Below, in pieces: positions 3,303-63,817 of a DNA stretch of 64,000 nt. Origin of the DNA: Deltaproteobacteria bacterium (lineage in GTDB: Bacteria > Desulfobacterota > GWC2-55-46); the NCBI GenBank assembly GCA_016182655.1, contig JACPGB010000047.1, positions 48,367 through 112,366 of the forward strand, given 5' to 3'. The position numbers and the translations under genes are program-made. The notes under the pieces were generated by a model that saw nothing but the letters and a program-made list of their open reading frames with translations, did no database searches and was not told the DNA's origin. The stretch's first letter is position 1. The number at the start of each line of letters is the position of its first letter.

Positions 3303-3505
3303 TTCGATAAATGAGTCTATAGGTGAGGTGTTCGCCGGACGGGCAAAGCCAGACCGGGTATCTATGCGCGATTCGGATATCCTCCCCCTTTTCTAAAGGG
3401 GAATTTCAGGGGATTAAAAAAGGCCGTTTTTATATATAATCTCCCCCAACCCCTCTTTAGAAAAGAGGGGTTCAACCAATGTCGCCATGCGCCGCCGCGA
3501 AGGAA

Positions 3506-8375: not shown

Positions 8376-8760
8376 CTACCCCGCAGAGGCAGGGGTATCT
8401 TCTAATACTTCCCCTCCCTCAATGGGAGGGGACTGAGGGGAGGGTGACTTCGGCACGCCAATTTCAAATCGGGCGGCTCGGGGGCTCATTGACGCAATGC
8501 CGTCCGTTGTGATTTTGCCCGCCCGGCACGCTTCACCCCCACCCCGCCCCTCCCCCATCAAGGGGGAGGGGGTGAAAAAACGCGGCAAGCCGCGGGGTAT
8601 TTGACCCTAAGAGAGAATAAATTGCCGGCATCCCTTGGAAGGTCTCTGGCCCCCCTCACCCTCCGCCTCTTTCCCACAAGGGGAGAGAGGACCATAAAAA
8701 AACACCCTCGTTTAAACACACTCCGTTGTCGCTTCCCAGCATCCCGTCTTGCAACCTTCC
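8376..8760. repeat. Mosaic of G/C-rich palindromic intergenic repeat modules, including an inverted copy of the ~90-nt element at about 8449-8530
   Basis: Hairpin modules seen by eye: taccccgcagaggcaggggta, cccctccctcaatgggagggg, cccctcccccatcaagggggagggg, ctttcccacaaggggagagag. The ORF-track ORFs here are artefacts. Confidence 0.7.
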
Positions 8761-10774: not shown

Positions 10775-10975
10775 CCTCCCGGCCTCCCCTTGTAAAAAGG
10801 GGAGGAGTTTAAGCAGTCTTTCCCCCTCTCCCCTTGTGGGAGAGGGCCGGGGTGAGGGGGATAATATTGAGGGTGGCATTTTTCACCCCCACCCTAACCC
10901 TCCCCCATCAAGGTGGAGGGGATTTCAACAAAAAAGCCCCCCTCCTTCCGGAGGGGGGCTTTTTAAATCTCATAT
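10775..10975. repeat. Palindromic repeat modules (cctccccttgtaaaaaggggaggag; ccctctccccttgtgggagaggg; cacccccaccctaaccctcccccatcaaggtggagggga)
   Basis: Same module family as at 8376-8760, 15800-16440, 21690-22430 and 28010-28190. Confidence 0.7.
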
Positions 10976-15799: not shown

Positions 15800-16440
15800 C
15801 TTCTTGCGCTTGACAGAGGCGGGCCGAAAGGCCCGCCTTTTTTTATTTAGAAGAGAGGAAGAAAAACATTTAAAACCACCCCTCCCAACCTCCCCTTGTA
15901 AAAGGGAGGAGCCAACCATAATCTCCCCCGGCCCCTCTTTAGAAAAGAGGGGGGTTTTAACCTCCCCTCCCTCGATGGGAGGGGATTGAGGGGAGGGTGA
16001 CTGCTCGGCGCAGGGCCAAAGTCGGTACGGAGCCTCCGGGGTAATCGATTCTCCTGCCGTAAGTTACAAATTTGCCTGCCCGGCGAGGGCCCCCTCACCC
16101 CGGCCCTCTCCCACCAGGGGAGAGGGGGTTCAGGCTTCGTTGGATCTCAAAACGCTGGACCCCGCTTTAAGCATGCGGGGATGACAATTTGGTTTTGCCT
16201 GTCATTCCCGAGGCATTAATCGGGAATCCAGTTAAAGGGCCTCCATAATCTCCCCCGCCCATCTTTAGAAAAGAGGGGGGATTAGCGATCTTCTCCTCTC
16301 CTTTACAAGGGGAGGTTGGGAGGGGTGGTTTGAAAGCGACCTCCCCTTGCCCCTCCTTGGTAAGGAGGGGAATCAAAAATCATCCCTTTTCCGAGGGGGG
16401 ACAGTTCGGCTTTGTCTTCATCCTGAGCAAAACCCCTACT
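15800..16440. repeat. Large mosaic of palindromic repeat modules, including an inverted ~90-nt element (about 16003-16090) and GTCATTCCCG...CGGGAAT hairpins
   Basis: Multiple G/C-rich hairpins seen by eye. The ORF-track ORFs 15847..16098 and 16167..16376 are artefacts. Confidence 0.7.
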
Positions 16441-21689: not shown

Positions 21690-22430
21690 CGCCTTTCTTT
21701 GGATAGGCGGGACTTTCCAGTCCCGCAGTAACCTCTCGCTTTCTTGACGGGATAGGGTTGAGTAAAGGAAGAAAAAATCTTCTCACCCCCATCCCGACCT
21801 TCCCCCGGCAAGGGGGAAGGAGTTAGATAAGTCGTCATTCCCGCTAAAGCGGGAAGCCAGCTCTAAAACGACACCTCCCCACCTCCCCTTGTAAAAAGGG
21901 GAGGAGATAAACAGCTCCCCTCCTTGACAAGGAGGGGCCGGGGGAGGTCGTCTTAACCCCGTCTCGGAAATGAGATACCCCGCCGAAGTGGGGGTGTCTT
22001 CTAATACCTCCCCTCCCTCGACGGGAGGGGACTGAGGCGCGCGGCGCAGGGCCAAAGCAGGTACGGAGCCTCCTGATAAATCAATCCTCTGTGGCGCGAT
22101 ACCGAATTGCCCGCCCGGCCGGTCTTCACCCCCATCCTGACCTTCCCCCATCAAGGGGGAAGGAGTTTTTCCACGCGTTTCAAGCGGATCTGTGTCTTGA
22201 TCAGCACCGGCACAACATGGGCGCGTGTGGCTGTACGAATTAAAGGGTTCAGGTTGCAACCCTGAAGCCGCAATCAGCTATAGGAATCTAATAGGACTAA
22301 CCGCTCCAACACCGTCATTCCCGCGAAAGCGGGAATCCAGCGTCTTCATATTAGACCTCCCCTCCCTTGACGGGAGGGGATAAAGGGGAGGGTGAGTAAC
22401 CTCAAAATAAAAAACCCGCCTTTCAGCGGG
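21690..22430. repeat. Largest mosaic block of palindromic repeat modules, including an inverted ~90-nt element (about 22036-22112) and two GTCATTCCCGC-GAAA-GCGGGAAT hairpins
   Basis: About 740 bp without a credible CDS. The ORF-track ORFs 21783..22259 and 21542..21838 are artefacts. Confidence 0.7.
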
Positions 22431-25229: not shown

Positions 25230-25412
25230 TGTTGTTGTAGGGTGGGCTCCGCTCACCGCTGTTGATTTGATTTATTATTTTTGGTGGGCATGGCCCACCC
25301 TGTTTTCGTCATTGCGAGGAGCTGTCCTCGCCGGACCGGCAAAGCCAGACCAAGCGGTTGTGCCTAAAAAAGTCTACTGGCTCCGATTTGGCTTTGGCCG
25401 CGCGCCGAGCGC
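25230..25412. repeat. Second twin-hairpin element copy followed by a plus-oriented ~90-nt element (25325-25412)
   Basis: gtagggtgggctccgctcacc...ggtgggcatggcccacc, then gtcctcgccggaccggcaaagcc...gcgcgccgagcg. Confidence 0.6.
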
Positions 25413-25459
25413 AAGCGACGAAGCAATCTCAAGGGCTTGGTTTAAAAAAATGGGGCGGA

Positions 25460-33474: not shown

Positions 33475-33592
33475 AGGCTTTTGGTCGGTGAAGGCCGTTA
33501 CCACTCCCCGCAGTCCCCTCCCGTCACAATGGTTGAGCGCCACTAACGCCAAAGTCATCGGATTTTAATCTGGCCGTACGCCGAGTACCATG

Positions 33593-36658: not shown

Positions 36659-36773
36659 TACAACCGATTGAAGGGTTCAAAAGGTCGGCCTGGAGCGCGC
36701 CAAATACAAATCGTGGCCTATGGGCTTTCCTGTGCACAGCCTATTGATGCTACTTTGCCCGCCTGGCGAAGCC

Positions 36774-44214: not shown

Positions 44215-44700
44215 TGGGATTGTCTTTTAACCCTTAAGGTCGCTCGCCCCATGCCCGGGGAGTTTTGAAAAACAAAAAAAGAATTTTTGTTTTTTATTCT
44301 GTCTTTACAAACACGCGGGCGCATGGCGGAGAGCGCCTCAGGGAGGCTGGGGTGAGCGAGCCGGGGAAGGATAGACGCGAAGCGCTCGGGGGGCGAGCGA
44401 GCGGTCCTCGCCGGACGGGCAAATCCGCATCGGGCGGTTGTGCTTCATTTAGCCCTCTGCAACCCGATTTGAAATTGGCACCGCGCCGAGCGGGGGGAGG
44501 AAGAAAGCGCTCGGAGCCATCGCCAAAAGCGCGCGGAGCGCGCAAAAAGGCCTTGCCACAAAGACTTTGAGTTTTTCGGCGTTTTTAAAAAACTGGATTC
44601 CCGCTTAAAGCACGCGAGAATGACAGTTACTCAAAAAATCATACAACTAAGGATTACGGTTACAAAACTGCATCCCAAAAAACAAAAAAGCCCCGGTCGC
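44215..44700. repeat. Repeat block with a plus-oriented ~90-nt element (44404-44482) and an inverted GTCATTC...GGGAATCCAG module
   Basis: gtcctcgccggacgggcaaatccgcatc...cccgatttgaaattggcaccgcgccgagcgg. Confidence 0.65.
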
Positions 44701-44735
44701 CCGGGGCTTTTTTTATTTCCGTTATTTTTTGAAGC

Positions 44736-50933: not shown

Positions 50934-52031
<1,098 letters not shown>

Positions 52032-52039
52032 CTATGGGC

Positions 52040-52531
52040 CTATTGCCCCTTGGCTATTTTCTTTACGAATACCTCGCCGGTCGCCGTCATGAACATGACC
52101 TTCCGGCCGAATACGCCGCCCGTGTCCCTGCTCAACGTTACTATCCTGCTCTCCGAAAGGGACTCCTCGGCGAGCGCTATGTTACGGTCTCCGACGTTCA
52201 GGAGCCCGCTCGTGCTCTCGAGGATGTTCCCCCCTCCGAACACCTTTGCCCTGATGTTGCCCTTGATCGAGCCGAGGGAGAGCATCTTCTCTATGAGCAT
52301 CGGTATCGCGACGTTCCCGTACTTAGGCGTCCGGAGCCCCTCGCCGTTCCAGAAGGGCAGGAGAAAGTGGTTCATGCCCCCTCTCCTGAGTATCGGGTCC
52401 CAGAGGCATACCGAGACGCAGGAGCCGAGGACCGTCGAGATGATGGACTCGCCGGTCTCGGCGAATATCATGCCGGGGTAGAGGAAATGGGCGTTCGCGG
52501 CCTTCGCATTCACAACGCTCTCCATGCTCAT
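52040..52531 (-). CDS. cheD: Chemoreceptor glutamine deamidase CheD (copy 2)
   Basis: 163 aa with the CheD family motif (VLGSCVSVCLWD). The ATG overlaps the upstream kinase stop (TGATG). The ORF-track ORF 52040..53227 is an out-of-frame artefact. Confidence 0.8.
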   Translation of the reverse strand: MSMESVVNAKAANAHFLYPGMIFAETGESIISTVLGSCVSVCLWDPILRRGGMNHFLLPFWNGEGLRTPKYGNVAIPMLIEKMLSLGSIKGNIRAKVFGGGNILESTSGLLNVGDRNIALAEESLSESRIVTLSRDTGGVFGRKVMFMTATGEVFVKKIAKGQ

Positions 52532-53433
52532 CAGAACCTCTCGCCGTCTGTTCCGAAGAAGAACTCGTTGCCGTCGACGGAGAAGACCGTCGCCTCCTCC
52601 CCGGCCATCTCGGGGACCGTGACCGTGAATACGGCGCCCGCGCCTTTTTTGGAGACGACCGAGATAGCGCCGCCCAGGAGCTCGAGCGTCGACTTGATTA
52701 TCGAGAGCCCGAGCCCGTGCCCGCCGTGGTGCTTGGTCGAGCCGGCCTCCAGCTGGCGGAACCTCTCGAAGACCGCCCCCTGGTCCCGCTCTTCCATGCC
52801 GATACCGTAATCGGCGACCGAGACGGAGAGCTCGCCACCGTCCTTCCACGCCTTGATCGTCACGGGCCTCTCCTCGTAGCTGAACTCTATGGCGTTTGCA
52901 AGCAGGTTCGCAAGCACGCACTGGAGCTTTTCCGGGTCGGTCCTGAAGAAGTGGTTCCTGACCGCATCGGTCAAGGTAGTGGAGACGGTTATCTTCTTTT
53001 CCGCGGCCCTGTGCCGGAAGGCTTCCACGGTGCTTTTCATGAGGGTCGCCATGTCTATCGCGGAAACGCTCAAAACGCTTTCGCCCGCCTCGAGTTCGGC
53101 GGCGGCGAAGATGTTCCGTAGCTGGTAATTCAGGCTGAAGGCCTCTTTCCGGATGGTCCCGACGAGCGAGCGGCATGTCTCCGCGTCGAGGTCCATGGGG
53201 CCGTCGGTTGAAAGTATCAGCTCGCACATGGTGAGGACCGAGGTCAGCGGGTTGTTTATCTCGTTCCTTATGTTCGAGAGGAAGTGGCTCTTTACCTTCT
53301 CGGACTCAAGGAGCCTCTCGTTCAGGGACGCGAGCTTTCTGGTCATCGCGGTGAGGTCGTGGCAGGCCTTGTCCTTGGCCTTGAGCCTCCGCATGAGCTC
53401 GTTTATTATCTCCTCGTCGCGATACCTGTCCAT
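52531..53433 (-). CDS. Cytoplasmic sensor-less histidine kinase (coiled coil + HisKA + HATPase_c)
   Basis: H-box KSHFLSNIRNEINNPL and G-boxes (DYGIGM, GGHGLGL). No TM helix and no REC domain. Confidence 0.8.
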   Translation of the reverse strand: MDRYRDEEIINELMRRLKAKDKACHDLTAMTRKLASLNERLLESEKVKSHFLSNIRNEINNPLTSVLTMCELILSTDGPMDLDAETCRSLVGTIRKEAFSLNYQLRNIFAAAELEAGESVLSVSAIDMATLMKSTVEAFRHRAAEKKITVSTTLTDAVRNHFFRTDPEKLQCVLANLLANAIEFSYEERPVTIKAWKDGGELSVSVADYGIGMEERDQGAVFERFRQLEAGSTKHHGGHGLGLSIIKSTLELLGGAISVVSKKGAGAVFTVTVPEMAGEEATVFSVDGNEFFFGTDGERF

Positions 53434-53456
53434 GGAGCCTCCTCGTATATTCGCTT

Positions 53457-54005
53457 TTAATCGTAATTTCCGACGAGGGCGGCTCCCTCGTCCGTTGTCG
53501 TCCTCTGGATGGTCCGCACTATCGCCTGGCCGGTGTGCGTAAGATAGAGGACCTTCCGCGCCTTGTCCCCGCCGGTATCCGAGTCGACGACCCGGACCCC
53601 GCGCCTCTTGAGGGCGGAATGCGCGGCGAGCGCGTTCTTGGCCCCGATCGAGGCGGCCCCCCTCGTGTCAGTAAAAGCGGCGCCCCCGAAGACCTTTGCT
53701 TCGAGCCGGGAGGGCCCGGCCCCGTGCTCCTCGAACCTCCGGAGCATGAGCTGGACGGAGCCGTCGACGAATATCATGGCGTCCCGCTCTTCCATCGAGC
53801 AGGAGGAACACTCAAACGCGCACTTTGTCATCGGGCGCGGCAGGAGGGCATGGCAGATGGCCCCGGCCCGCAGAGCCGGAGAGTGGATGAGTACCGCGAT
53901 GCAGGAACCGAGGACCGTGCGTACGGCGGAGGGCCTGATGCTGAAAAAAAGCTCCCCGGGACTGAGATAGACGAGCGGGATGCCTTCGGGAACGTATATG
54001 CGCAC
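53457..54005 (-). CDS. cheD: Chemoreceptor glutamine deamidase CheD (copy 1)
   Basis: 182 aa with the CheD family motif (VLGSCIAVLIH). Confidence 0.8.
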   Translation of the reverse strand: MRIYVPEGIPLVYLSPGELFFSIRPSAVRTVLGSCIAVLIHSPALRAGAICHALLPRPMTKCAFECSSCSMEERDAMIFVDGSVQLMLRRFEEHGAGPSRLEAKVFGGAAFTDTRGAASIGAKNALAAHSALKRRGVRVVDSDTGGDKARKVLYLTHTGQAIVRTIQRTTTDEGAALVGNYD

Positions 54006-54006
54006 G

Positions 54007-54861
54007 TCACACCTTTCTGTACACCGATGGCGCCGCCTTCTCGAACGGGAGGTCGAGCCCGGAGAGCGTCTCCGAGTGCCCTATGAAAAGGTAGCTCCCG
54101 GCGTGCATGCACTGGGAGAACTTGTAAAAAAGCCTCTCCTGGGTCTCTTTGTCAAAATATATGATGACATTCCTGCAAAAAATAATATCGAGGTCCCTGA
54201 ACGGAAACTCGTTGTCCATGAAATTAAGCCTCTGGAGGTGGAGACGGGCCCTTAGCTCCGGAGACATCCTCACGAGCCCCTTTGCCGCGTCCCTGCTCCT
54301 TAATACATACTTTTTTCTGAGCTCCATCGGCACGGGCTCGATCCTCTCTTCCTTATAGATGCCTTTTTGGGCCATGGAGAGGACCCTTGTCGAGATGTCG
54401 GTACAGGATATCCTGAAGTCGAACCCAAGGCCCGAGTTAGCGCACGCGAACTCCGAGAGCGTCATTGCAATGGTGTACGGCTCCTCGCCGGTCGAGCATC
54501 CCGCGGACCAGACGGTAAGCGGTGAACCGAGCCCCGCCCTACGGCTGTTTACGAGCTCCGGGACCGCCGTGTTGGAGAGGTACTCGAAGTGGAACGACTC
54601 GCGGAAAAAATCGGTCTTGTTCGTAGTGACGAGGTCTATCATGTGGACGAGCTCCTCGTCCGCGCCGGCGGGGCTGAAGACGAAGTCGATATATTCCCGG
54701 AAGCCTCTGAGCCCGAGCGCGCGGAGCCTCTTCTGGAGCCTGGATTCCAAGAGCGCCTTTTTCACCGGGGGCATCTTTATCCCGAGCTCCTTTTGTATGA
54801 AGGCGCTAAGGGCCTGGAACGCCTTGTCGTCCATCCGGACCGAACCGATGATGCCTGTCAT
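54007..54861 (-). CDS. cheR: Chemotaxis protein methyltransferase
   Basis: SAM-binding motifs (VWSAGCSTGEEPYT). Confidence 0.9.
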   Translation of the reverse strand: MTGIIGSVRMDDKAFQALSAFIQKELGIKMPPVKKALLESRLQKRLRALGLRGFREYIDFVFSPAGADEELVHMIDLVTTNKTDFFRESFHFEYLSNTAVPELVNSRRAGLGSPLTVWSAGCSTGEEPYTIAMTLSEFACANSGLGFDFRISCTDISTRVLSMAQKGIYKEERIEPVPMELRKKYVLRSRDAAKGLVRMSPELRARLHLQRLNFMDNEFPFRDLDIIFCRNVIIYFDKETQERLFYKFSQCMHAGSYLFIGHSETLSGLDLPFEKAAPSVYRKV

Positions 54862-54923
54862 ATGAATGCCTTATCGATAATTAAAGGGCTCCGGGGGGCT
54901 TTTGCCCCCCGGAGGACCGCCGC

Positions 54924-55418
54924 TTATGCCGCCGGGGCCTTGGCCTCGTGGACCTCGAGGAGCTCCTCTGTCGAGAATATCCTGTCGATCTCGAGGATTA
55001 TGATGAACTGGTCGTCACGCTTGCCCATGCCCTTGATGAACTCGGTATTCAGCCTCGTCCCTATCCTCGGGGCCGGCTCTATCTGGCCCGGCTCGAGCTC
55101 TATGACCTCCTGGACGGAATCGGCCAGGGCCCCGAGCACGAGCTTGTCCCCGTCGAGATTTATTTCCGCTATTATGATGCAGGTGTTCACGGTCTGCTCG
55201 GTCCTGGACATGTTGAACTTAAGGCGCATGTCGACTACCGGCACTACGGACCCGCGAAGGTTTATGACTCCCCTCATGAAGTCCGGGGTCCTCGGGACTT
55301 TCGTGAGCGCCGTAAAATCGAGGACCTCCCTCACCTTGGTGATGTCGAGGGCGAAGACCTCCGTCGCGAGCTTGAAAGTCAGGTACTGCGTGGTCTCTGT
55401 TATGGCGGCAACACTCAT
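54924..55418 (-). CDS. cheW: Chemotaxis coupling protein CheW
   Basis: Start at MSVAAI, with an AAGGAGGG RBS 8 nt upstream. The ORF-track start at 55466 overlaps the MCP and is rejected. Confidence 0.85.
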   Translation of the reverse strand: MSVAAITETTQYLTFKLATEVFALDITKVREVLDFTALTKVPRTPDFMRGVINLRGSVVPVVDMRLKFNMSRTEQTVNTCIIIAEINLDGDKLVLGALADSVQEVIELEPGQIEPAPRIGTRLNTEFIKGMGKRDDQFIIILEIDRIFSTEELLEVHEAKAPAA

Positions 55419-55431
55419 CTGGAAGCCCTCC

Positions 55432-57138
55432 TTAATATTTGACGAACTCGGTCTCTTCCTCGTCACCCGCGTCGAGGTTCAAGGCGACCCCGCTGTTCGC
55501 GGCCGCCTTGGCGTGCTTCGCATGAGCGGAAGGCGCGGCTTCCCTTGCGTGAACGGCCTTGGCCTTGGGCGCCGGCTTTGCCCCGCCCTTGACCACCTTT
55601 AGCTGTCTCGTCGCCTGCTGTAAGCCGGAGTCCGATATCCTGAAGAAGGCTATCGCCGACTGGAGCTGTTCGGCCTGCGAGGAGAGCTCCTCCGAGGTAG
55701 ATGCGAGCTCCTCGGCCGCGCCCGCGTTCTGTTGTATGACCTGGTCGAGCTGCTGTAGCGCCCTGTTTATCTGTTCGGCGCCGCTGTTCTGCTCGCCGCT
55801 CGCGGCCGTTATCTCCTGGACGAGCTCCGAGGTCTTCTGGATGTCTGGTACGAGCTTCGCGAGCATCTCCCCGGCTTTTTCCGCGATTTGCACGCTGGTC
55901 GAGGAGAGCTGGCTTATCTCGCCCGCCGCGGTCTGGGACCTTTCGGCGAGCTTCCTTACTTCAGAGGCCACGACGGCAAACCCTTTGCCGTGCTCGCCGG
56001 CCCTTGCGGCCTCTATCGCGGCGTTCAGCGCAAGCAGGTTCGTCTGCCTCGCGATCTCCTCGATGATCGATATCTTGGACGCTATCTCCTTCATGGCGTT
56101 TACGGTCTCCGCGACCGCCTGGCCGGACTCTCTGGCGTCGGACGCCGACTTGTTCGCTATCTTTTCCGTCTGCTGGGCGTTATCCGAGTTCTGCTTGATG
56201 TTAGAGGTCATCTCCTCCATGGAAGACGAGGTCTCCTCGATGGAGGCCGCCTGCTCGGTCGCGCCGTGGGATATCTGCTGTGCCCCGGAGGAGAGCTCCT
56301 GGCTCCCGCCCGCGACATTGTCGGATACGGTACGGACGTCCGTCACGACCCCGCGTAGCTTCTCCACCATGTTCTTCATGGCGGCCATGAGCTGGCCGGT
56401 CTCATCCTTGCCCCTGACCTCTATCTCCATCGTCAGGTCTCCTATTGCGAGCTTGTTCGCGACGTTCGTCGTGAGGTCCGAAAGAGGCTTTGCTATGAGC
56501 TTGGTCAAGAGCATGACGGCCGCTATGGCGACGGCCATCGCAAGGACCGTCGCGCCTATTACGATATTTCTCGTCATGATGTAGTCGTCATTTGCCTCGT
56601 TAAAGAGCTGTTTGCCTACCTCGTCCTGTATCTCGATGAGCCTCTGGGATTTCTGGTCGACTATCGTGAACTTTGGGCCCGCGTCATTGGCGGCGTTGTA
56701 CCTGGCCTGGTCGAACTTTCCTTCGAGCGCCCATTTGTAGGTGTTGAGCCTGGAATCGTTATAGGCCCTCCATGCCGGACGGAACTCGGAGAGGACCTTT
56801 TCCTCCTCGGGCACCAGCGTCGTCGCGGCGTACTTCTCAATCAGGTTGTCTATCTCCTTTTCGCTCTCGGAAGCATCGTTGAAGATGGCCTGGCGCTTTG
56901 GCGCATCCTGCTCATTTATTATCTTCAGCGCGCCCATCCTTATATTGGCAAGCTCCATGTTGATCTTGCCGAGGTCGACGACAGGCACGAACCTGTCTGC
57001 GTAAAGCGACTGTAGATTGCTCTTCATGTCCATTATCCTGTTGATGCTCAACCCCCCGAGCAGCATGACGAAGACCACGACAAGGGCGAAGCTAACGGTC
57101 AGTTTGGAGCTCGTTTTCATGTCTCTGAAGAAATTCAT
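55432..57138 (-). CDS. Methyl-accepting chemotaxis protein (TM-periplasmic 4HB-like-TM-HAMP-MA)
   Basis: Conserved MA signalling domain ([33 protein letters not shown]). Confidence 0.9.
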
Positions 57139-57244
57139 CTTTCCCTCCGCTTGGTTATGTTGATCATTTTTTCCTCCCTAAAGCTGTCTCTGAAGTCCGT
57201 GCCTATCATTCCGGCGGCGCGTCTTTTGTCATTGCGTCCTCCGT

Positions 57245-59404
57245 TCAGGCTGCCGCCCGTTCAACGGCCTCGATGAGCCGCGGGATGTCGAGTATTAGCG
57301 CGACTTCGCCGTTCCCCATTATCGTTGCCCCGGATATGCCCTTTATCTCTTTGTACGCCTTGGAGAGCGACTTGATGACGGTCTGGACCTCGCCGAAGAG
57401 CTCATCCACTACAAGCCCTATCTTCGCCGAGCCGTACCTTACTATGATGATGTTCTCGTACCTGGCGTCCTTGCCTTCAAGCCCGAAGTAGCGTTTAAGC
57501 CTTACGTACGGCAGGACCTCGCCCCTCAAGTTTATGTAGCTACTCCTGTTGCCTTCCCTCTCGGATTCCGGGAGCTCCACGCATTCCACGACCATGTCGA
57601 GCGGTATTACGTACGAAGACCCGGCTACCCCGACCCTGAAGCCGTCGATGATGGCGAGCGTTAGTGGTAGCCTTATGCGGACGACCGTGCCAGAGCCTTC
57701 AACGCTCTCGACATCGACCGACCCGCGTAGCGCTTCGATGTTCCTTTTGACCACGTCCATGCCGACACCCCTGCCCGAGAGCTTGGTGACGGATTCGGCG
57801 GTCGAGAAGCCCGGCTCGAATATGACGCGGAATATCTCGGAGTCCGAGTACTGCTGACCGGGGGCGAGGAGCCCCTGTCCGATGGCCTTCTCCAGTATCC
57901 TCTTTTTATTGAGCCCCCTGCCGTCGTCGGTTATCTCGATCGTTATCGAGCCCGCGTCGTGGAAGGCGTTAAGCCTTATCGTCCCAATAACGGGCTTTCC
58001 AGCGGAGGCGCGCGCCTCCGCCTTCTCGATCCCGTGGTCTGCCGCGTTTCTCACTATGTGCATGAGCGGATCGCTTATTTTTTCGACCACCGTCTTGTCG
58101 AGCTCGGTCTCTCCGCCTTTTATCTCGAGCGCAATCTCCTTGCCCGTATCCCTGCTTATGTCGCGGACTACCCTGTTGAACCTGCTGAAGGTCTCGCCGA
58201 TGGGGACCATCCTTATCTTCATCGAAGTGTCCCTTATCTCCTCGACGAGCCTCAGCATGGATGAGGCGGACTCAAGGAGCCACGCGTCCTTTACCCTTTG
58301 CGCCTGCTGGTCGATGTTGGCGCTTGCTATGACGAGCTCTCCGACGAGGTTTATGAGCCCGTCAAGCTTGTCGGCGTCGACGCGGATGGTCCGCGCCTCC
58401 TTAGACCTCGTCTCCTGTGTCTTCTTCTGCTTTTCGAGCGCGGCGTCGACTATGTCGGATTGGACCATCCCCTCGGTCACGAATATCTCGCCTATGAGGC
58501 GTTTGGAGCCGTCGGAGGCGGCCTCCGAGGACTTCTGTAGCGAGAGCGCCTCATCGAGCTCTGTCTTCGTAAGAGCCCCGCCCTTTACGAGTATCTCTCC
58601 CAAAAGGACCGTATCCTCGGGAAGGTCCCTTATGAGGTCCACGTAGGACTCGACCCTGCTGTGCGGCGGGAGTATCGCTATCATGCAGTCCTCGCGGACG
58701 AACTCGAATACGCCCTCGATCGCTTTTTTGTCGAAGTCGCTCTTGAAGTCGATCTCGAATCCGAGATAACAGGTCTCGGGGTCCATATCCTCAACGCCCG
58801 GTATCGAATCGAAGAGTGTCGATATCGAGATTATCTCGCCGAGCTTTCCGAGGTACGAGATGAACGAGGCCGGGTCCATGCCGGAGCGGAGCACATCCGG
58901 GCCGAACCGCAGCGATATGTGCCATGCGTCCGTCGAAGACAACCTGCCGGACTCAGGCGTATCCGTAACCGGGCCTTTAACGGCGCGCTTCTCCGGGACC
59001 TCCTCCTTTTTCACGAGAAGGGCCGAGAGCCTCTCGGTCAGGCCCGCTTCCTTGATCTCGGTAAGGGCAGGGACAGCGGCGTCCGAGGCCGCGAGCTCTA
59101 TAAGCGTCTTCGTGTGGTCCCTGCACTCGAGGAGGAGCTCGATCGTCGCGCTCGTTAACGTGAACGCGCCGTCGCGGACATTGGAGAGGAGGTTTTCGAC
59201 GAGATGGGTGAACTTCTCGACCGTCTCCATCCCGAGTATCCCGGAGGCGCCCTTTATCGTATGGGCCGACCTGAAGAGCGAGTTTATCGTGTCGGCGTCA
59301 CCCGGGTTTTTTTCGAGGGAGAGAAGCACGTTCTCCATCTCCTCCAGGAGCTCCGCGCTCTCAGTCATGAATGTCTGCCTTGCCTGCCCTAACTCGATGT
59401 CCAT
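57245..59404 (-). CDS. cheA: Chemotaxis histidine kinase CheA (Hpt-P2-dimerisation-HATPase-CheW-like)
   Basis: Hpt HTIKGASG motif. Confidence 0.9.
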   Translation of the reverse strand: MDIELGQARQTFMTESAELLEEMENVLLSLEKNPGDADTINSLFRSAHTIKGASGILGMETVEKFTHLVENLLSNVRDGAFTLTSATIELLLECRDHTKTLIELAASDAAVPALTEIKEAGLTERLSALLVKKEEVPEKRAVKGPVTDTPESGRLSSTDAWHISLRFGPDVLRSGMDPASFISYLGKLGEIISISTLFDSIPGVEDMDPETCYLGFEIDFKSDFDKKAIEGVFEFVREDCMIAILPPHSRVESYVDLIRDLPEDTVLLGEILVKGGALTKTELDEALSLQKSSEAASDGSKRLIGEIFVTEGMVQSDIVDAALEKQKKTQETRSKEARTIRVDADKLDGLINLVGELVIASANIDQQAQRVKDAWLLESASSMLRLVEEIRDTSMKIRMVPIGETFSRFNRVVRDISRDTGKEIALEIKGGETELDKTVVEKISDPLMHIVRNAADHGIEKAEARASAGKPVIGTIRLNAFHDAGSITIEITDDGRGLNKKRILEKAIGQGLLAPGQQYSDSEIFRVIFEPGFSTAESVTKLSGRGVGMDVVKRNIEALRGSVDVESVEGSGTVVRIRLPLTLAIIDGFRVGVAGSSYVIPLDMVVECVELPESEREGNRSSYINLRGEVLPYVRLKRYFGLEGKDARYENIIIVRYGSAKIGLVVDELFGEVQTVIKSLSKAYKEIKGISGATIMGNGEVALILDIPRLIEAVERAAA

Positions 59405-59415
59405 TTAAGCGTTCC

Positions 59416-59730
59416 TTATCTGTTGTGGTCTGCGGAGCAGTTCAGGTATTCGCCGACGGAGAAGAGGTCTATCACCGCACGGGCGGCCTCCGAGGCGTTC
59501 ACGATTGAAAACGCCCTGCCCGAGGCCTCGGCCTCTCTCTTGGCGAGCAACAGCAGTTGAAGCCCCGTAGTGTCCAATTCGGTTGCGCCCGAGAGGTCGA
59601 TTTGAAGCGGCTCATGGCGCGCAAGCGCCTCAACGACGCCTTTTTTAAGGTCAAGGGCGTGGTATATGTTCATCTCCCCGGTTACGAGCGCGGTACAGAG
59701 GCCGTCCTTGTTTTCGTGCTTTATTTCCAT
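59416..59730 (-). CDS. STAS-domain protein (anti-sigma-factor antagonist-like)
   Basis: Start at MEIKHENKDG. SpoIIAA-like fold pattern. Confidence 0.6.
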   Translation of the reverse strand: MEIKHENKDGLCTALVTGEMNIYHALDLKKGVVEALARHEPLQIDLSGATELDTTGLQLLLLAKREAEASGRAFSIVNASEAARAVIDLFSVGEYLNCSADHNR

Positions 59731-59740
59731 TTTCCCTCCG

Positions 59741-60109
59741 TCACGGCACGATGAGCTTCGAGATCGCCTCAAGCATCTGCTCGGGCTTGAAGGGCTTCAC
59801 GACCCATGCCTTTGCCCCGGCCATCTTGCCTTCCTGCTTTTTATTCTCCTGCGACTCGGTCGTGAGCATGATGACCGGCGTGAACCTGTAGGATGTGTTC
59901 GTCTTCACGTTCTTCAAAAAAGAGATGCCGTCCATGTTCGGCATATTTACGTCGCAGATCATGAGGTTTATCTTCTGCCCCTGGAGCTTGGAGATAGCGT
60001 CCTGCCCGTCGCAGGCCTCGATGACGTCGTAACCCGCCTTCTTGAGCGTCAGGTTGACGACCTGCCTTATCGAGGCCGAATCGTCTATCACCATGATAGT
60101 CTTTGCCAT
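59741..60109 (-). CDS. cheY: CheY-like single-domain response regulator
   Basis: 122 aa with D10, the D53 region (MICDVNMP) and K105 conserved. Confidence 0.85.
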   Translation of the reverse strand: MAKTIMVIDDSASIRQVVNLTLKKAGYDVIEACDGQDAISKLQGQKINLMICDVNMPNMDGISFLKNVKTNTSYRFTPVIMLTTESQENKKQEGKMAGAKAWVVKPFKPEQMLEAISKLIVP

Positions 60110-60130
60110 TTGCCGTTCCTCCCTGGTTCG

Positions 60131-61468
60131 TTAAAAAAATGTCACGTCGCTCTGAGCCACCTTCGGCGTTGCCTTCCCCTTCGCGGCCTTGTTGCCTCCG
60201 GCAACGACCTCGAGATGGACCGACCTCTGGCGCTCCATGACGTAATACTTCTTGATGTCCTCTATGTCGAACTCCGCCGTCCTGCACTCGCCTACGCAGG
60301 CCGCGTCCTCCTTCATGCACTCCTGGAGGCTTACTATGAAGGCGTCGGTGTCGTTGATGGTCCGTATGACGAGCTCTATCTGCTGGCGGACGATGTCCTG
60401 GAACTGCACATTGGCGAGGAGCTCCGTCACTTCCCGCGCCACCTCGTCGCTCGATATCGAAACATGGCCGAGTACCTCGTGGTTCAGCCTGTCGAGTTCC
60501 TTATAGCTCCCGCCGAGCCTGGCGAGCTGGCTTTCGAGCGAGAGGAGCATCGAGCTCTCGTCGCTACCCGCCTTCTGGTTGAGCTTTACCGCGAACTTCT
60601 CCTCTATCTCCCCGGCCATCTCGTTCATCGCGTGCCCTATTTTCGTTGCGGCCGCGTCGGACTGCGTGGAGAGTTTTCTCACCTCCTGGGCTACTATCGC
60701 GAAACCCCTGCCGTGCTCTCCGGCTCTCGCCGCCTCTATGGCGGCGTTCAGCGCCAGCAGGTTCGTCTGGTCGCTTATTTCCTTCAGAAGCTCGACGAAC
60801 CTGGTCATGGAGCGGGCCTTCTCCGCGAGCGCCAGCACCGTCTTGTAGTCCTTGTCCACTTCCTGGAGGCGCCTGTCTATGTACTTGCGGAGATCCGCTA
60901 TCGTCTCCTCGTTCGCCGCAATCGTCTCATTGGACTCAGCGGCGAGCGCCTCGCTCTGGCCCTGGAGCTCCCTTATCGTCGACTGCATCGAGGTCATCGA
61001 GGAGTCGATCTCCTGGGACTGGGCTATTATCCTGTTCGCCGCCTCCGCTGTCTCATCCACTATCTGGTTCAGATGGCCGTTCGTGAGCTTGTTTATGTCG
61101 TGCTGTGTGTTGAAGAACCTCTCGACCTTCGCCTCGCGGTTGCGGTGGTGGACACTGCCTTGCGTGAACTCCTCGACGAGCTCCGTCTCGGATTCGGCGA
61201 TGTCAGGAAGCGGCCTCCTCGCCCATTTTACGCTCAAGCCCTGGATGATGACGGCTCCGGTCACGAGCCATAACGCGCCTTCGATCGCCCTCGCGTACCT
61301 CCCTGTCAGAAACCCTCCGAGGAGTTCATTTATATGGTCCAGGAGGAAGAGTTCGATTACGACCGATGCCGCGAGCGCGGCGAGCGTGGATTTAAAAAGT
61401 ATCCGCCTGTACGCCGGGATATACAGGAAGAGGAACTGGTCGGATCTTTTTTTGGCGGCTGATGTCAT
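60131..61468 (-). CDS. Methyl-accepting chemotaxis protein (two TM helices, short periplasmic loop)
   Basis: MA domain ([33 protein letters not shown]). Confidence 0.85.
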
Positions 61469-61705: not shown

Positions 61706-62683
61706 TTGGAACCCATGGTAAGGATACTCTCTCATTCAGGGGACAATACGCTCTCAGAGCCCGGCGTAAACGAGCTCGGCGAGCTCCTCGCCGACGCGAA
61801 GCGCCTCACATGGGTCGACCTCTACAACCCGACGGACGAGGAGTTGAAGCTCCTGACCGATGTCTTCCGGTTTCACCCGCTCTCCATAGAAGACTGCCTC
61901 TCCTTCGTCCCGAACCCCAAGATAGACGACTACATCGACTACCTCTACATAGTCATCCACGGCATAGACGCCGAAGCGCTCAAGAAAGACGAGCTAAAGA
62001 CCCACGACCTCGACATCTTCCTCGGGAAGAACTACCTCGTAACCTTCCGCAAGGGCTCTTTCAGGTCGATCGAGTCAGTGATGGAGCGGTGCAGGAAAAA
62101 CCCGGCGCTTATGGGGAAGGAGCCCGAGTGGCTCATGCACAAGGTCATAGACACGCTCGTCGACAATTACCTCCCTCTCATGGATTCCATCAGCGAGGAA
62201 ATCGACGAGATAGAGAAGGAGTCGTTCGAAAAGGCCGGCCCCGAGACCCCCAGAAAAGTACTCGCCCTCAAGAAGGACATCCTCTACCTCGGCCGGATCA
62301 TCCACCCGCAGAGGGAGATATTGAGACAGCTCTCGGGCTCCGAGTACCCGATAATATGCTTCGAGTGCTCGCTACACTTTAAAGACGTCTACGACCACCT
62401 CTTCATGCTCTCCGAGCTCATCGAGTCCCACAGGGACTCCTTGAACAGCGTCATGGAGGTCTATTTGTCCTCCGTCTCCAACAGGCTGAACGAGATAATG
62501 AAGGTCCTTACGGTAATAGCCACCATAATGATGCCGCTTACGCTGTTGTCCGGCATATACGGCATGAACTTCGCGCATATCCCCCTTGCCGACTCCCCCT
62601 GGGGCTTTTACATCGCGCTGGCGGTCCTGGCCCTCCTCGGGGGCGGGATGCTCCTCTTTTTCAAAAAGCGGGGCTGGTGGTAG
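61706..62683 (+). CDS. corA: Magnesium/cobalt transporter CorA
   Basis: GMN motif (YGMNF) and two C-terminal TM helices. Confidence 0.85.
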   Translation: MEPMVRILSHSGDNTLSEPGVNELGELLADAKRLTWVDLYNPTDEELKLLTDVFRFHPLSIEDCLSFVPNPKIDDYIDYLYIVIHGIDAEALKKDELKTHDLDIFLGKNYLVTFRKGSFRSIESVMERCRKNPALMGKEPEWLMHKVIDTLVDNYLPLMDSISEEIDEIEKESFEKAGPETPRKVLALKKDILYLGRIIHPQREILRQLSGSEYPIICFECSLHFKDVYDHLFMLSELIESHRDSLNSVMEVYLSSVSNRLNEIMKVLTVIATIMMPLTLLSGIYGMNFAHIPLADSPWGFYIALAVLALLGGGMLLFFKKRGWW

Positions 62684-62686
62684 GTC

Positions 62687-63050
62687 CTCGCCGGACGGGC
62701 AAATCCGCATCCAACGCCTGAGTTGTCTGATTGCCTAAAGCCACCCGATTTGAATTTGGCCCTGCGCCAAGCAGGCCTCGCCGGGCAGGCAAATCCGTAT
62801 CCAACGCCTGTGTTATCTGATTGCCTAAAGCCACCCGATTTGAATCTGGCCCTGCGCCGAGCAGGCCTCGCCGGGCAGGCAAATCCGTATCCAACGCCTG
62901 TGTTATCTGATTGCCTAAAGCCACCCGATTTGAATCTGGCCCTGCGCCGGGCAGTCCTCGCCGGACGGGCAAATCCGTATCCAACGCCTGTGTTATCTGA
63001 TTGCCTAAAGCCACCCGATTTGAATCTGGCCCTGCGCCGAGCAGTCCTCA
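62687..63050. repeat. Four tandem, nearly identical ~90-nt units of the dispersed ~90-nt element family
   Basis: Unit: ctcgccggRcRggcaaatccgYatccaacgcctgWgttRtctgattgcctaaagccacccgatttgaatYtggccctgcgccRRgcagKc. The units are contiguous, with no unique spacers. Confidence 0.85.
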
Positions 63051-63169
63051 TCGCTTAAAAAATCCTTAAAATCTCCTCTCTTAACTTCATCCCTGCAGTC
63101 TTTAATCCTTCGGCTATACTTAATTCATACGTCCTGAATCTGTCATCCTCATAATAATGGAGGGCGGTC

Positions 63170-63817
63170 ATGGCTGAGGCAGAGCCTTTCAGGTTCCACG
63201 AGTGTTTCGCGCTCATAAGGCTGACCGGCAGGCGAGCGAGCGACATCCTCGAGCTCCTCGAGATAATAAAGCAGGTCTCGAAGGGCTCCATCTTCCACCA
63301 CATGCACCAGTACTTCATAAAATCGTACATCGTCCCCCCGGAGTTCCCGAACGACTTCGCGGTCTGGGTCGCCGACTCTCTTGGAGAGCAGAACCTCGCC
63401 GAGGGGCTCGCGAACCTCAACCCGTTCGAGTTCGAGAACATCGAGGACATAAGGTCCGAGCTCGTGAGGATAATAACCGAGCACCTGAAGAACTACCCCA
63501 TGCCGAGGCCGGTCCTGCCCGGCAGGGAGTTCATGTTCAACGAGGGCGTGACCATGGTCCTGCCTACCTCGATTACGGCGGCCACGCTCCACGACTTCGC
63601 TCGGGCATTGAGGGAGGTCGACCCGTCGTCCATATACTTCCACTTCTACGAGGCGCGCCTCCGGCTCGGCAAGGAGGAGGACGACTTCACCCATTATATC
63701 GATGAGTGCCTCGAGTGCCCGGGCCTGGCCAGGAGGATAAAGACGATGGACCCATACATGTACTCGACCGAGGTCCTGAGGGATAAATTCATACGGATCA
63801 TAGAAGAGGCGCTATGA
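63170..63817 (+). CDS. Hypothetical protein (possibly DUF5752-like), translationally coupled to the downstream GT4 gene
   Basis: 215 aa. ATGA stop/start overlap with the next gene. Confidence 0.4.
   Translation: MAEAEPFRFHECFALIRLTGRRASDILELLEIIKQVSKGSIFHHMHQYFIKSYIVPPEFPNDFAVWVADSLGEQNLAEGLANLNPFEFENIEDIRSELVRIITEHLKNYPMPRPVLPGREFMFNEGVTMVLPTSITAATLHDFARALREVDPSSIYFHFYEARLRLGKEEDDFTHYIDECLECPGLARRIKTMDPYMYSTEVLRDKFIRIIEEAL

Follow-up and report, generated by a model that had tools for sequence, protein, structure and literature searches.

A four-unit tandem array behind corA and the family of hairpin-ended intergenic repeats to which it belongs in groundwater deltaproteobacterial genomes

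Introduction

What kind of element is the sequence of about 90 nt that stands four times head-to-tail between corA and a glycosyltransferase operon in a 64-kb stretch of contig JACPGB010000047.1 (Deltaproteobacteria bacterium), and why does it recur elsewhere on the same stretch? The original prediction, made on the letters of this stretch (hereafter the window) alone, took the array for an amplified structured RNA gene or for an array of binding sites, and held that it was not a CRISPR. Below, E denotes the ~90-bp repeat element, copies of which were located with a profile built from the copies themselves. E is a previously undescribed family of hairpin-ended intergenic repeats found in a few related groundwater deltaproteobacterial genomes. 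Beyond what had been noted before, it is a high-copy, lineage-restricted family whose arrays are common and often mixed, which is nested in other repeats and which behaves like mobile DNA. With somewhat more confidence than doubt, we read E as a lineage-specific, non-coding and non-autonomous mobile DNA repeat of the REP/REPIN kind, and the corA array as one insertion that was amplified in place.

Results and discussion

The array between corA and the DUF5752 gene

Tandem Repeats Finder placed the array at 62686-63049 (period 90, 4.0 copies, 95% matches, 0 indels, score 644), within 1 nt of the predicted 62687-63050, and reported it as the sole strong tandem array in the window. The predicted surroundings were also recovered: the array starts 2 nt past the TAG stop codon of corA (PF01544; 61715-62683, plus strand) and ends 125 nt ahead of the DUF5752 gene (63170-63817, plus strand) that heads the downstream TreT-type glycosyltransferase/trehalose-phosphatase operon. 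The units, all on the plus strand, lie at 62686-62775 (unit 1, the most divergent, with 6-9 differences from the others), 62776-62865 (unit 2), 62866-62955 (unit 3, 2 differences from unit 2) and 62956-63045 (unit 4), and are followed by TCCTC (63046-63050, plus strand), the opening 5 nt of a further unit. The array had been called perfect, which it is not: all four units are distinct, 9 of the 90 columns vary and pairs of units differ at 2-9 positions. The 5' module variants along the array read GGACGGG, GGGCAGG, GGGCAGG and GGACGGG (A-B-B-A). The middle sequence type of these units was found only in this array and nowhere else in our data, which indicates that the array grew in place.

Independent Logan short-read contigs with identical corA and DUF5752 genes all stop inside unit 1 or unit 4; the first 72 nt of unit 1 are present in contig L061, and the 3' part of unit 4 with its junction in contigs L058, L059 and L060. 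As these contigs reproduce both junctions between the array and unique DNA but end within the array, they confirm the junctions and not the count of four units, which is the value of this assembly and which short-read assemblies cannot verify. No unit-number polymorphism was observable at the corA locus, where independent contigs end in the array and relatives either lack E or have another upstream gene. The repetitive pseudo-proteins described earlier correspond to open reading frames (ORFs) that do exist over the array on both strands, because 90 is a multiple of three, but none of them was called as a gene by a codon-usage gene caller. We rejected protein coding on this ground and because other E arrays have periods of 85-91 bp.

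Anatomy of the unit

In an alignment of 116 unique units the first ~20 nt (5' module, G-TCC-TCGCC-GGAC-GGGCAAA) and the last ~20 nt (3' module, TTTGGCC-CCGC-GCCGA-GCGG) are conserved. The reverse complement of the 3' module reads CCGC[TCGGC]GCGG-GGCCAAA, and one and the same module, inverted, forms both ends: a hairpin with a 4-bp stem and a 5-nt loop next to GGSCAAA (TTTGSCC on the other side). For unit 1 of the corA array these are hairpin A, GTCC[TCGCC]GGAC (62685-62697, plus strand), and hairpin B, CTGC[GCCAA]GCAG (62762-62774, plus strand), and the same modules are repeated at the start and at the end of every unit. The middle of ~50 nt between them is variable and falls into 32 sequence clusters. 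The conserved termini of the original prediction stood as far as the end motifs are concerned, which occur in the window far above chance (14 against 1.84 expected for the 5' motif, 9 against 0.71 for the 3' motif); the 'TCCG' and 'GATTTGAA' segments, in contrast, are subfamily-specific and not universal.

The terminal stems covary. Hairpin A occurs as GTCC/GGAC or GCCC/GGGC around TCGCC, and hairpin B with six complementary stems (CCGC/GCGG, CTGC/GCAG, GTAC/GTAC, GTGC/GCAC, GCGC/GCGC and GCAC/GTGC) around a constant GCCGA loop. In total 95.2% of the stem cells are paired, against 27-46% when the partner column was slid, and double changes were found in 41 cells against 9.5 +/- 6.1 in shuffles. 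RNAalifold also preferred two small terminal hairpins over one long hairpin. The structural covariation that had been named beforehand as a check is thus present in the two terminal hairpins and, together with the middle type restricted to this array, it bears out the predicted amplification of a small structured element. Conserved loops on short covarying stems fit hairpins that are recognised by a protein.

Little further structure was found. On either strand, single units, middles and the array as a whole had the same minimum free energies as shuffled sequences (z about 0; about -0.4 for the middles), by which we rejected a strongly structured RNA or single-stranded DNA. Loop-loop pairing between hairpins or over unit junctions was rejected by inspection, as variants of the loops (TTGCC, GCCAA and others) are not matched by compensating ones. 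Mismatches of the G-U and A-C type were about equally frequent in the stems (7 and 9, respectively) and did not identify a strand. A lone extra hairpin A (GTCCTGGCCGGG) was seen right before the first array unit at two loci (L023:3790-3825 and L024:3895-3930), in the manner of a 13-nt stutter of the 5' module; this region is overlapped by the end of an ORF in the gene caller.

Dispersed copies and family distribution

The window holds ten full E units, array units included. Dispersed copies had been predicted, and five of them were recovered as full units: at 8451-8530 (minus strand, with a degenerate 3' end) and 22038-22122 (minus strand), both in a G-rich/C-rich hairpin-repeat context, at 16001-16088 (minus strand) in a G-rich/C-rich triple-hairpin repeat, at 25325-25411 (plus strand) at the tip of a short REP-like hairpin (GTCATTGCGAG...CGAAGCAATC) and at 44405-44493 (plus strand) in a composite repeat of ~350 bp. 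The copy predicted at 3331 turned out to be just a 5' fragment of 36 nt (3332-3367, plus strand). Missing from that list were a full copy at 36697-36769 (minus strand), which is decayed and has lost hairpin B, and a 3' fragment at 33531-33585 (plus strand).

An exact two-part E pattern, scanned against one genome for each of 185,579 species, was found at 57 loci in only three metagenome-assembled genomes (MAGs), all labelled Deltaproteobacteria bacterium (GWB2_55_19, NC_groundwater_1707 and NC_groundwater_1708). Syntenic parts of these three MAGs share 80-89% identity with the window, whose genome is therefore a fourth relative bearing E. Matches in a metagenome scan came mostly from the same Rifle organism. 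The sole pattern match from a different metagenome (L063:1822-1894; Ga0302322_100039281) was missed by the E profile at an E-value <= 1e-3 and is probably due to chance or very distant. Viral contigs, phage genomes and plasmids gave no match, by which we rejected a phage or plasmid origin. The ~0.8 Mb of fetched, partly redundant DNA contained 162 non-overlapping matches representing 116 distinct sequences, and both MAG and Logan contigs were found to break at E.

Placement, insertion context and nesting

E lies outside genes, and a gene call is overlapped by just 3 of the 77 copies or arrays. It favours the 3' ends of genes, with 16 occurrences between convergent and 5 between divergent genes, and between co-directional genes it is antisense in 25 of 33 cases and sense in 8 of 33 (counted in relatives); these orientation counts are not fully independent, as some loci are orthologous. 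Target-site duplication was absent at 59 distinct sites, where no direct repeat exceeded a permuted-flank control. The base preceding E (position -1) is a G at 58 of these 59 sites, usually as part of CGG or GGG, and the insertion context resembles the 3' end of E itself (GCGG or GCAG). A miniature inverted-repeat transposable element mobilised by a DDE transposase was rejected given the lack of target-site duplication and the imperfect terminal inverted repeats (about 16/20). Our search for an autonomous parent yielded nothing beyond a few end fragments; a long element with E ends on both sides was not found.

Several other repeat families harbour single copies of E, usually where an inverted repeat has its tip. 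A second abundant repeat family consists of small G-rich/C-rich hairpins (CCCTCTCCCC..GGGAGAGGG, GGGGTGAGGGGG..TCACCCTCCCC and CCCCTCCC..GGGAGGGG), located at 10824-10900 (plus strand), 22379 (minus strand), 24400 (minus strand) and 28159 (plus strand) and flanking E at 8431, 15984 and 22030; its central loop holds an E unit in some copies and none in others, and the four repeats at 10824, 22379, 24400 and 28159 are without E. A short REP-like palindrome, GTCATTGCGAGCGAAGCGAAGCAATC, is likewise multi-copy (window 25303-25440; L003, L011, L029, L030, L037, L054 and L056). A variant of this hairpin (GAGGAGC...GCGACG) carries E at its tip in filled copies (GAGGAGCGG, E, CAAGCGACG), and its empty version, GAGGAGCG joined directly to CAAGCGACG, is present in L054. 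The composite repeat at 44225-44575 (~350 bp) has more than 30 copies among the fetched loci; its left part is AT-rich (TTTGAAAAACAAAAAAAGAATTTTTGTTTTTTATTC), its arms are GC-rich, and an E unit lies at its centre. This composite may be a larger mobile element or a unit that bears a promoter. Each host repeat context has its own E subtype, which indicates that the composites spread as units too.

Arrays and their dynamics among relatives

The 77 copies or arrays comprise 57 singles, 10 dimers, 3 trimers, 6 tetramers and 1 pentamer, and three other assemblies also contain arrays of 2-5 units. The units of arrays are always head-to-tail with 0-3 nt in between, and they are often of mixed types. 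In homogeneous arrays the units share one unusual truncated junction (85-bp period), as local duplication predicts.

Orthologous arrays differ between sister MAGs in unit count (2 versus 4, again 2 versus 4, and 3 versus 4-5) and in composition (c8-c5 versus c5-c5-c5-c8; two units versus four; A-B-B-C-C'' versus A-C'-B), and the decayed copy at 36697-36769 is the orthologue of a dimer in a sister MAG (L020). The middle can differ while the ends stay the same: at what is apparently one locus in two sister MAGs (L005:2400-2487 and L031:5018-5104) E has the same ends and flanks of ~97% identity, whereas the ~50-nt middle is just ~50% identical and has been replaced by another subtype.

The same middles show why the array is not a CRISPR, as had been stated. 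Its units directly adjoin one another and are nearly the same over their whole length, middles seen in sister arrays turn up again at unlinked loci, and no viral match was obtained; cas genes were not specifically searched. A spacer-like origin of the middles was rejected, as none matched anything outside E in the ~0.8 Mb or in viral contigs.

The corA locus in relatives

Two relatives with a DUF5752 protein that is 83% and 74% identical also have corA upstream, but E is absent from the spacer, which measures 1.27 kb with an extra ORF in the one and 184 bp in the other. Together with the middle type confined to the array, this identifies the array as a lineage-specific insertion that has grown in place. 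The extra ORF (L084:3176-3886, in the JACRET relative) encodes 236 aa without a Pfam match, and its C-terminal hydrophobic segment followed by basic residues (...LLLIGAAFAGAAVLKRKF) is reminiscent of a PEP-CTERM sorting signal. Within the 8.6 kb covered for this relative (JACRET01) no E was seen.

Contigs L089 and L090, with DUF5752 proteins that are 87% and 98% identical, carry a divergent HTH_5 (ArsR-type) gene upstream and contain no E. Similarity of these contigs to the window (compared over 63100-63170) begins only ~60 nt ahead of the start codon. With the HTH_5 gene in the place of corA, the array therefore lies at or near a gene-order breakpoint.

A proposed REP/REPIN-like mobile repeat

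If E is a mobile repeat of the REP/REPIN kind, its terminal hairpins would be the recognition sites, most likely as single-stranded DNA, for an enzyme encoded elsewhere, most likely a RAYT or IS200/IS605-type HUH tyrosine transposase. Insertion would create no target duplication and would take place directly 3' of a G (usually in CGG or GGG), with the tips of other hairpin repeats as frequent insertion points. The 3' end of E itself (...GCGG or ...GCAG) would then let it insert directly behind a resident copy and so build mixed head-to-tail arrays, and recombination between the conserved ends may swap middles and alter the number of units. For the corA array we propose one insertion 2 nt behind the corA stop codon, which unequal crossing-over or replication slippage then multiplied in place until there were four units; these would since have diverged at 9 positions with patchy conversion of the 5' module (A-B-B-A). 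Insertion behind a terminal G(G) would thus explain the stacking, and unequal exchange or slippage the homogeneous arrays. No host function needs to be assumed for the corA array.

Several observations weigh against this mobile-repeat interpretation. Pfam assigned all of the 20 neighbouring genes to housekeeping functions, with no RAYT or transposase that could mobilise E among them, and within the ~0.8 Mb of E-centred DNA (not whole genomes, so that the negative is not decisive) neither tblastn with IS200 and IS608 TnpA queries nor a scan for HUH and YxxNP motifs gave a match. The GT(A/G)G head typical of REPs is in neither module, the conserved neighbour of the hairpin being GGSCAAA/TTTGSCC. 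No recent transposition event was directly observed, and differential loss of units from once longer arrays offers another explanation for the non-collinear orthologues. The orientations of E are mixed although GC skew is negative over the entire window, contrary to strict IS608-like insertion, and a replication-strand rule for orientation was rejected on this basis. Taken alone, the terminal hairpins have little stability (-1.6 to -3.7 kcal/mol as DNA). An end-to-end helix of E is at best 79% pairable (best register) and has no covariation, and the two halves of the spacer pair no better within their own unit than with another unit (-9.07 versus -8.62 kcal/mol, p=0.17), by which a long hairpin of the whole element was rejected. 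The membership of E in the RAYT-REPIN family is not established.

Alternative explanations

The RNA gene of the original prediction deserves a closer look, as covariation of the two terminal stems cannot separate RNA from single-stranded DNA and is equally compatible with either; E units may thus be genes or cis-elements for a small structured RNA, with the middle perhaps as a target-recognition segment and the array as a read-through product of corA that is processed to monomers. Conserved ends around a variable middle are reminiscent of guide-type RNAs, the preferred location of copies is downstream of gene 3' ends, and the array is co-oriented with corA and begins 2 nt after its stop codon. 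We nevertheless consider this explanation unlikely. Rfam, which had been suggested as a check, gave no match at the gathering score over the whole window and none at an E-value <= 5 over 62600-63170, the folding energies equal those of shuffled sequences, no promoter or terminator was found in the array, and the flanks of E share no conserved upstream sequence. Moreover, the wobble and A-C counts show no strand asymmetry, most copies between co-directional genes (25 of 33) are antisense, the ~0.8 Mb contain no match to the middles outside E, and it is typical of selfish DNA to be present in many copies, to sit within other repeats and to decay at orthologous sites. Compensatory changes also argue against the other half of the original prediction: an array of sites for a duplex-binding protein fails to explain them. 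In a broader version, in the manner of NIMEs or BIMEs, E would serve the host as an array of sites for a nucleoid protein, for gyrase or for a site-specific recombinase exchanging neighbouring DNA. The high conservation of the hairpin loops and the adjoining GGSCAAA tails would agree with such a role, as would the differing gene order at the corA/DUF5752 junction in the closest relatives (L089 and L090) and the fact that arrays are dynamic between relatives, as is known for NIME arrays (PMC1797815). Its probability seems to us just as low as that of an RNA gene: compensatory stem changes are unexpected for sites read as duplex DNA, the neighbours are unrelated housekeeping genes without a common theme, no recombinase was found nearby, and many copies are decaying (36697-36769 and the fragments).

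Head-to-tail arrays of a single orientation with mixed unit types and folded junction elements also recall integrons. E units could be gene-less mini-cassettes with ~50 nt of cargo that a hairpin-specific recombinase excises and re-inserts at unit junctions, for which the different unit order in orthologues (A-B-B-C-C'' and A-C'-B) and the middle that was replaced between identical ends at one orthologous locus may be quoted. Yet differential loss explains the order differences and ordinary gene conversion the replaced middle, 57 of the 77 copies are solitary, no integrase or recombinase was found among the neighbouring genes examined and the core sites of attC (RYYYAAC/GTTRRRY) are absent from the alignment, which together make this very improbable. 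An integron attC array proper was rejected, with no RYYYAAC...GTTRRRY, arm-to-arm pairing without covariation and no integrase among the neighbours examined. The wider proposition that E units are either cassettes actively shuffled by a hairpin-specific enzyme at the junctions of hairpin B and hairpin A, rather than passive minisatellites, or a small-RNA family with variable middles, is only slightly less doubtful. Least probable of all is that the four-unit array is an artefact of short-read metagenome assembly, i.e. a collapsed, expanded or chained repeat. Every independent short-read contig stops in the first or last unit, the units are shorter than typical reads, and units 2 and 3 differ at just 2 positions. 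Against it stand the four distinct units with a middle type unique to the locus, by which chaining from other loci is excluded, the recovery in independent contigs of both junctions to unique DNA, together with variants that only unit 1 has, and the arrays of 2-5 units in three other assemblies. An assembly error could alter the unit count, but not the existence or the position of the element.

Comparison with known systems

The closest parallels to E as a mobile repeat are the REPINs of Pseudomonas fluorescens SBW25, which consist of two inverted REPs with a palindromic core kept by complementary mutations and a less conserved spacer (PMC3116915, PMC2817692). One REPIN family with 612 copies is 89 bp long (PMC2817692). 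REPINs also form tandem clusters, either of up to four near-identical units or of unrelated units, the latter formed by insertion into or beside existing copies (PMC3116915). E resembles them in its two inverted end modules of ~16-20 nt with compensated palindromic cores, its less conserved spacer, its similar size, its extragenic location, its many copies and its tandem clusters of near-identical or mixed units. It differs from them in that it lacks the GT(A/G)G head, that the stems of its two hairpins are unlike each other, so that the whole-element hairpin is poor and without covariation, that its middles are far more diverse (32 types) and that its host belongs to a deltaproteobacterial (Thermodesulfobacteriota-like) lineage. 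In addition, no RAYT was found for E in the available sequence; none flanked by E modules was found in the window or at ~80 E-centred loci, whole genomes being outside this search.

Elements of the IS200/IS605 type and their non-autonomous derivatives, with IS608 and ISDra2 as models of the mechanism, have hairpins at both ends, create no terminal duplication and insert 3' of a short specific sequence that abuts their left end. E shares the hairpin ends, the lack of duplication and this kind of insertion site, and a right end that recreates the target would explain stacking. IS608 is cleaved 19 and 10 nt away from its hairpins, on their outer sides, and on one strand these two hairpins are of identical sequence. 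The hairpins of E, in contrast, are at its very ends and mutually inverted, no replication-strand bias was seen in the window, and no TnpA was found.

The NIMEs of Neisseria (dRS3 plus RS units) consist of short conserved inverted repeats between many families of variable units of 50-150 bp, and at syntenic loci related genomes have NIME arrays that differ in number and length (PMC1797815). E arrays are likewise mosaics of conserved inverted-repeat ends and variable units that are unstable between syntenic loci. However, dRS3 (ATTCCC-N8-GGGAAT) is unrelated in sequence to E, NIME units are defined by their flanks whereas E is a discrete unit that is also found singly, and dRS3 is a known target of phage and recombinase whereas no such enzyme is known for E.

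The MIRU-VNTR loci of mycobacteria have units of 40-100 bp in head-to-tail tandem and variable number at many intergenic positions (PMC3635867). E is also dispersed, intergenic and head-to-tail, and its unit number differs between orthologous arrays of sister MAGs. MIRUs are co-oriented with the flanking genes, and their small ORFs overlap the flanking stop and start codons. E differs in being mostly antisense between co-directional genes (25 antisense, 8 sense), in its hairpin ends and in its periods of 85-91 bp, which are not constrained to multiples of three.

Other features of the window

A strong hairpin resembling a bidirectional intrinsic terminator (AAAAAAGCCCCGGTCGCCCGGGGCTTTTTTT) lies between convergent genes at 44679-44716 and explains all weak matches of its region in Rfam as judged by E-value. 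Two separate chemotaxis clusters (cheA, cheW, cheR, cheB, cheD and genes for methyl-accepting chemotaxis proteins) bracket the region of corA and the trehalose operon, one at 51715-61468 and one past 63817 (seen in L058 and L061).

Conclusions

The tandem array has an ordinary explanation, and some of what the family does is unusual. The distribution of E is narrow, and the finding opens no long-standing question; the unproven cassette-like exchange of middles is the only feature that would raise its interest. On the practical side, these repeats break short-read MAG assemblies and create spurious repetitive ORFs, and they could serve as strain markers of the variable-number tandem repeat type. 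If the interpretation of E as a mobile repeat is right, REPIN-like hairpin-ended mobile repeats would extend to an uncultured groundwater lineage of Deltaproteobacteria, and E would be an unusually clear case of mixed head-to-tail stacking, in which the 3' end of the element recreates its preferred insertion context.

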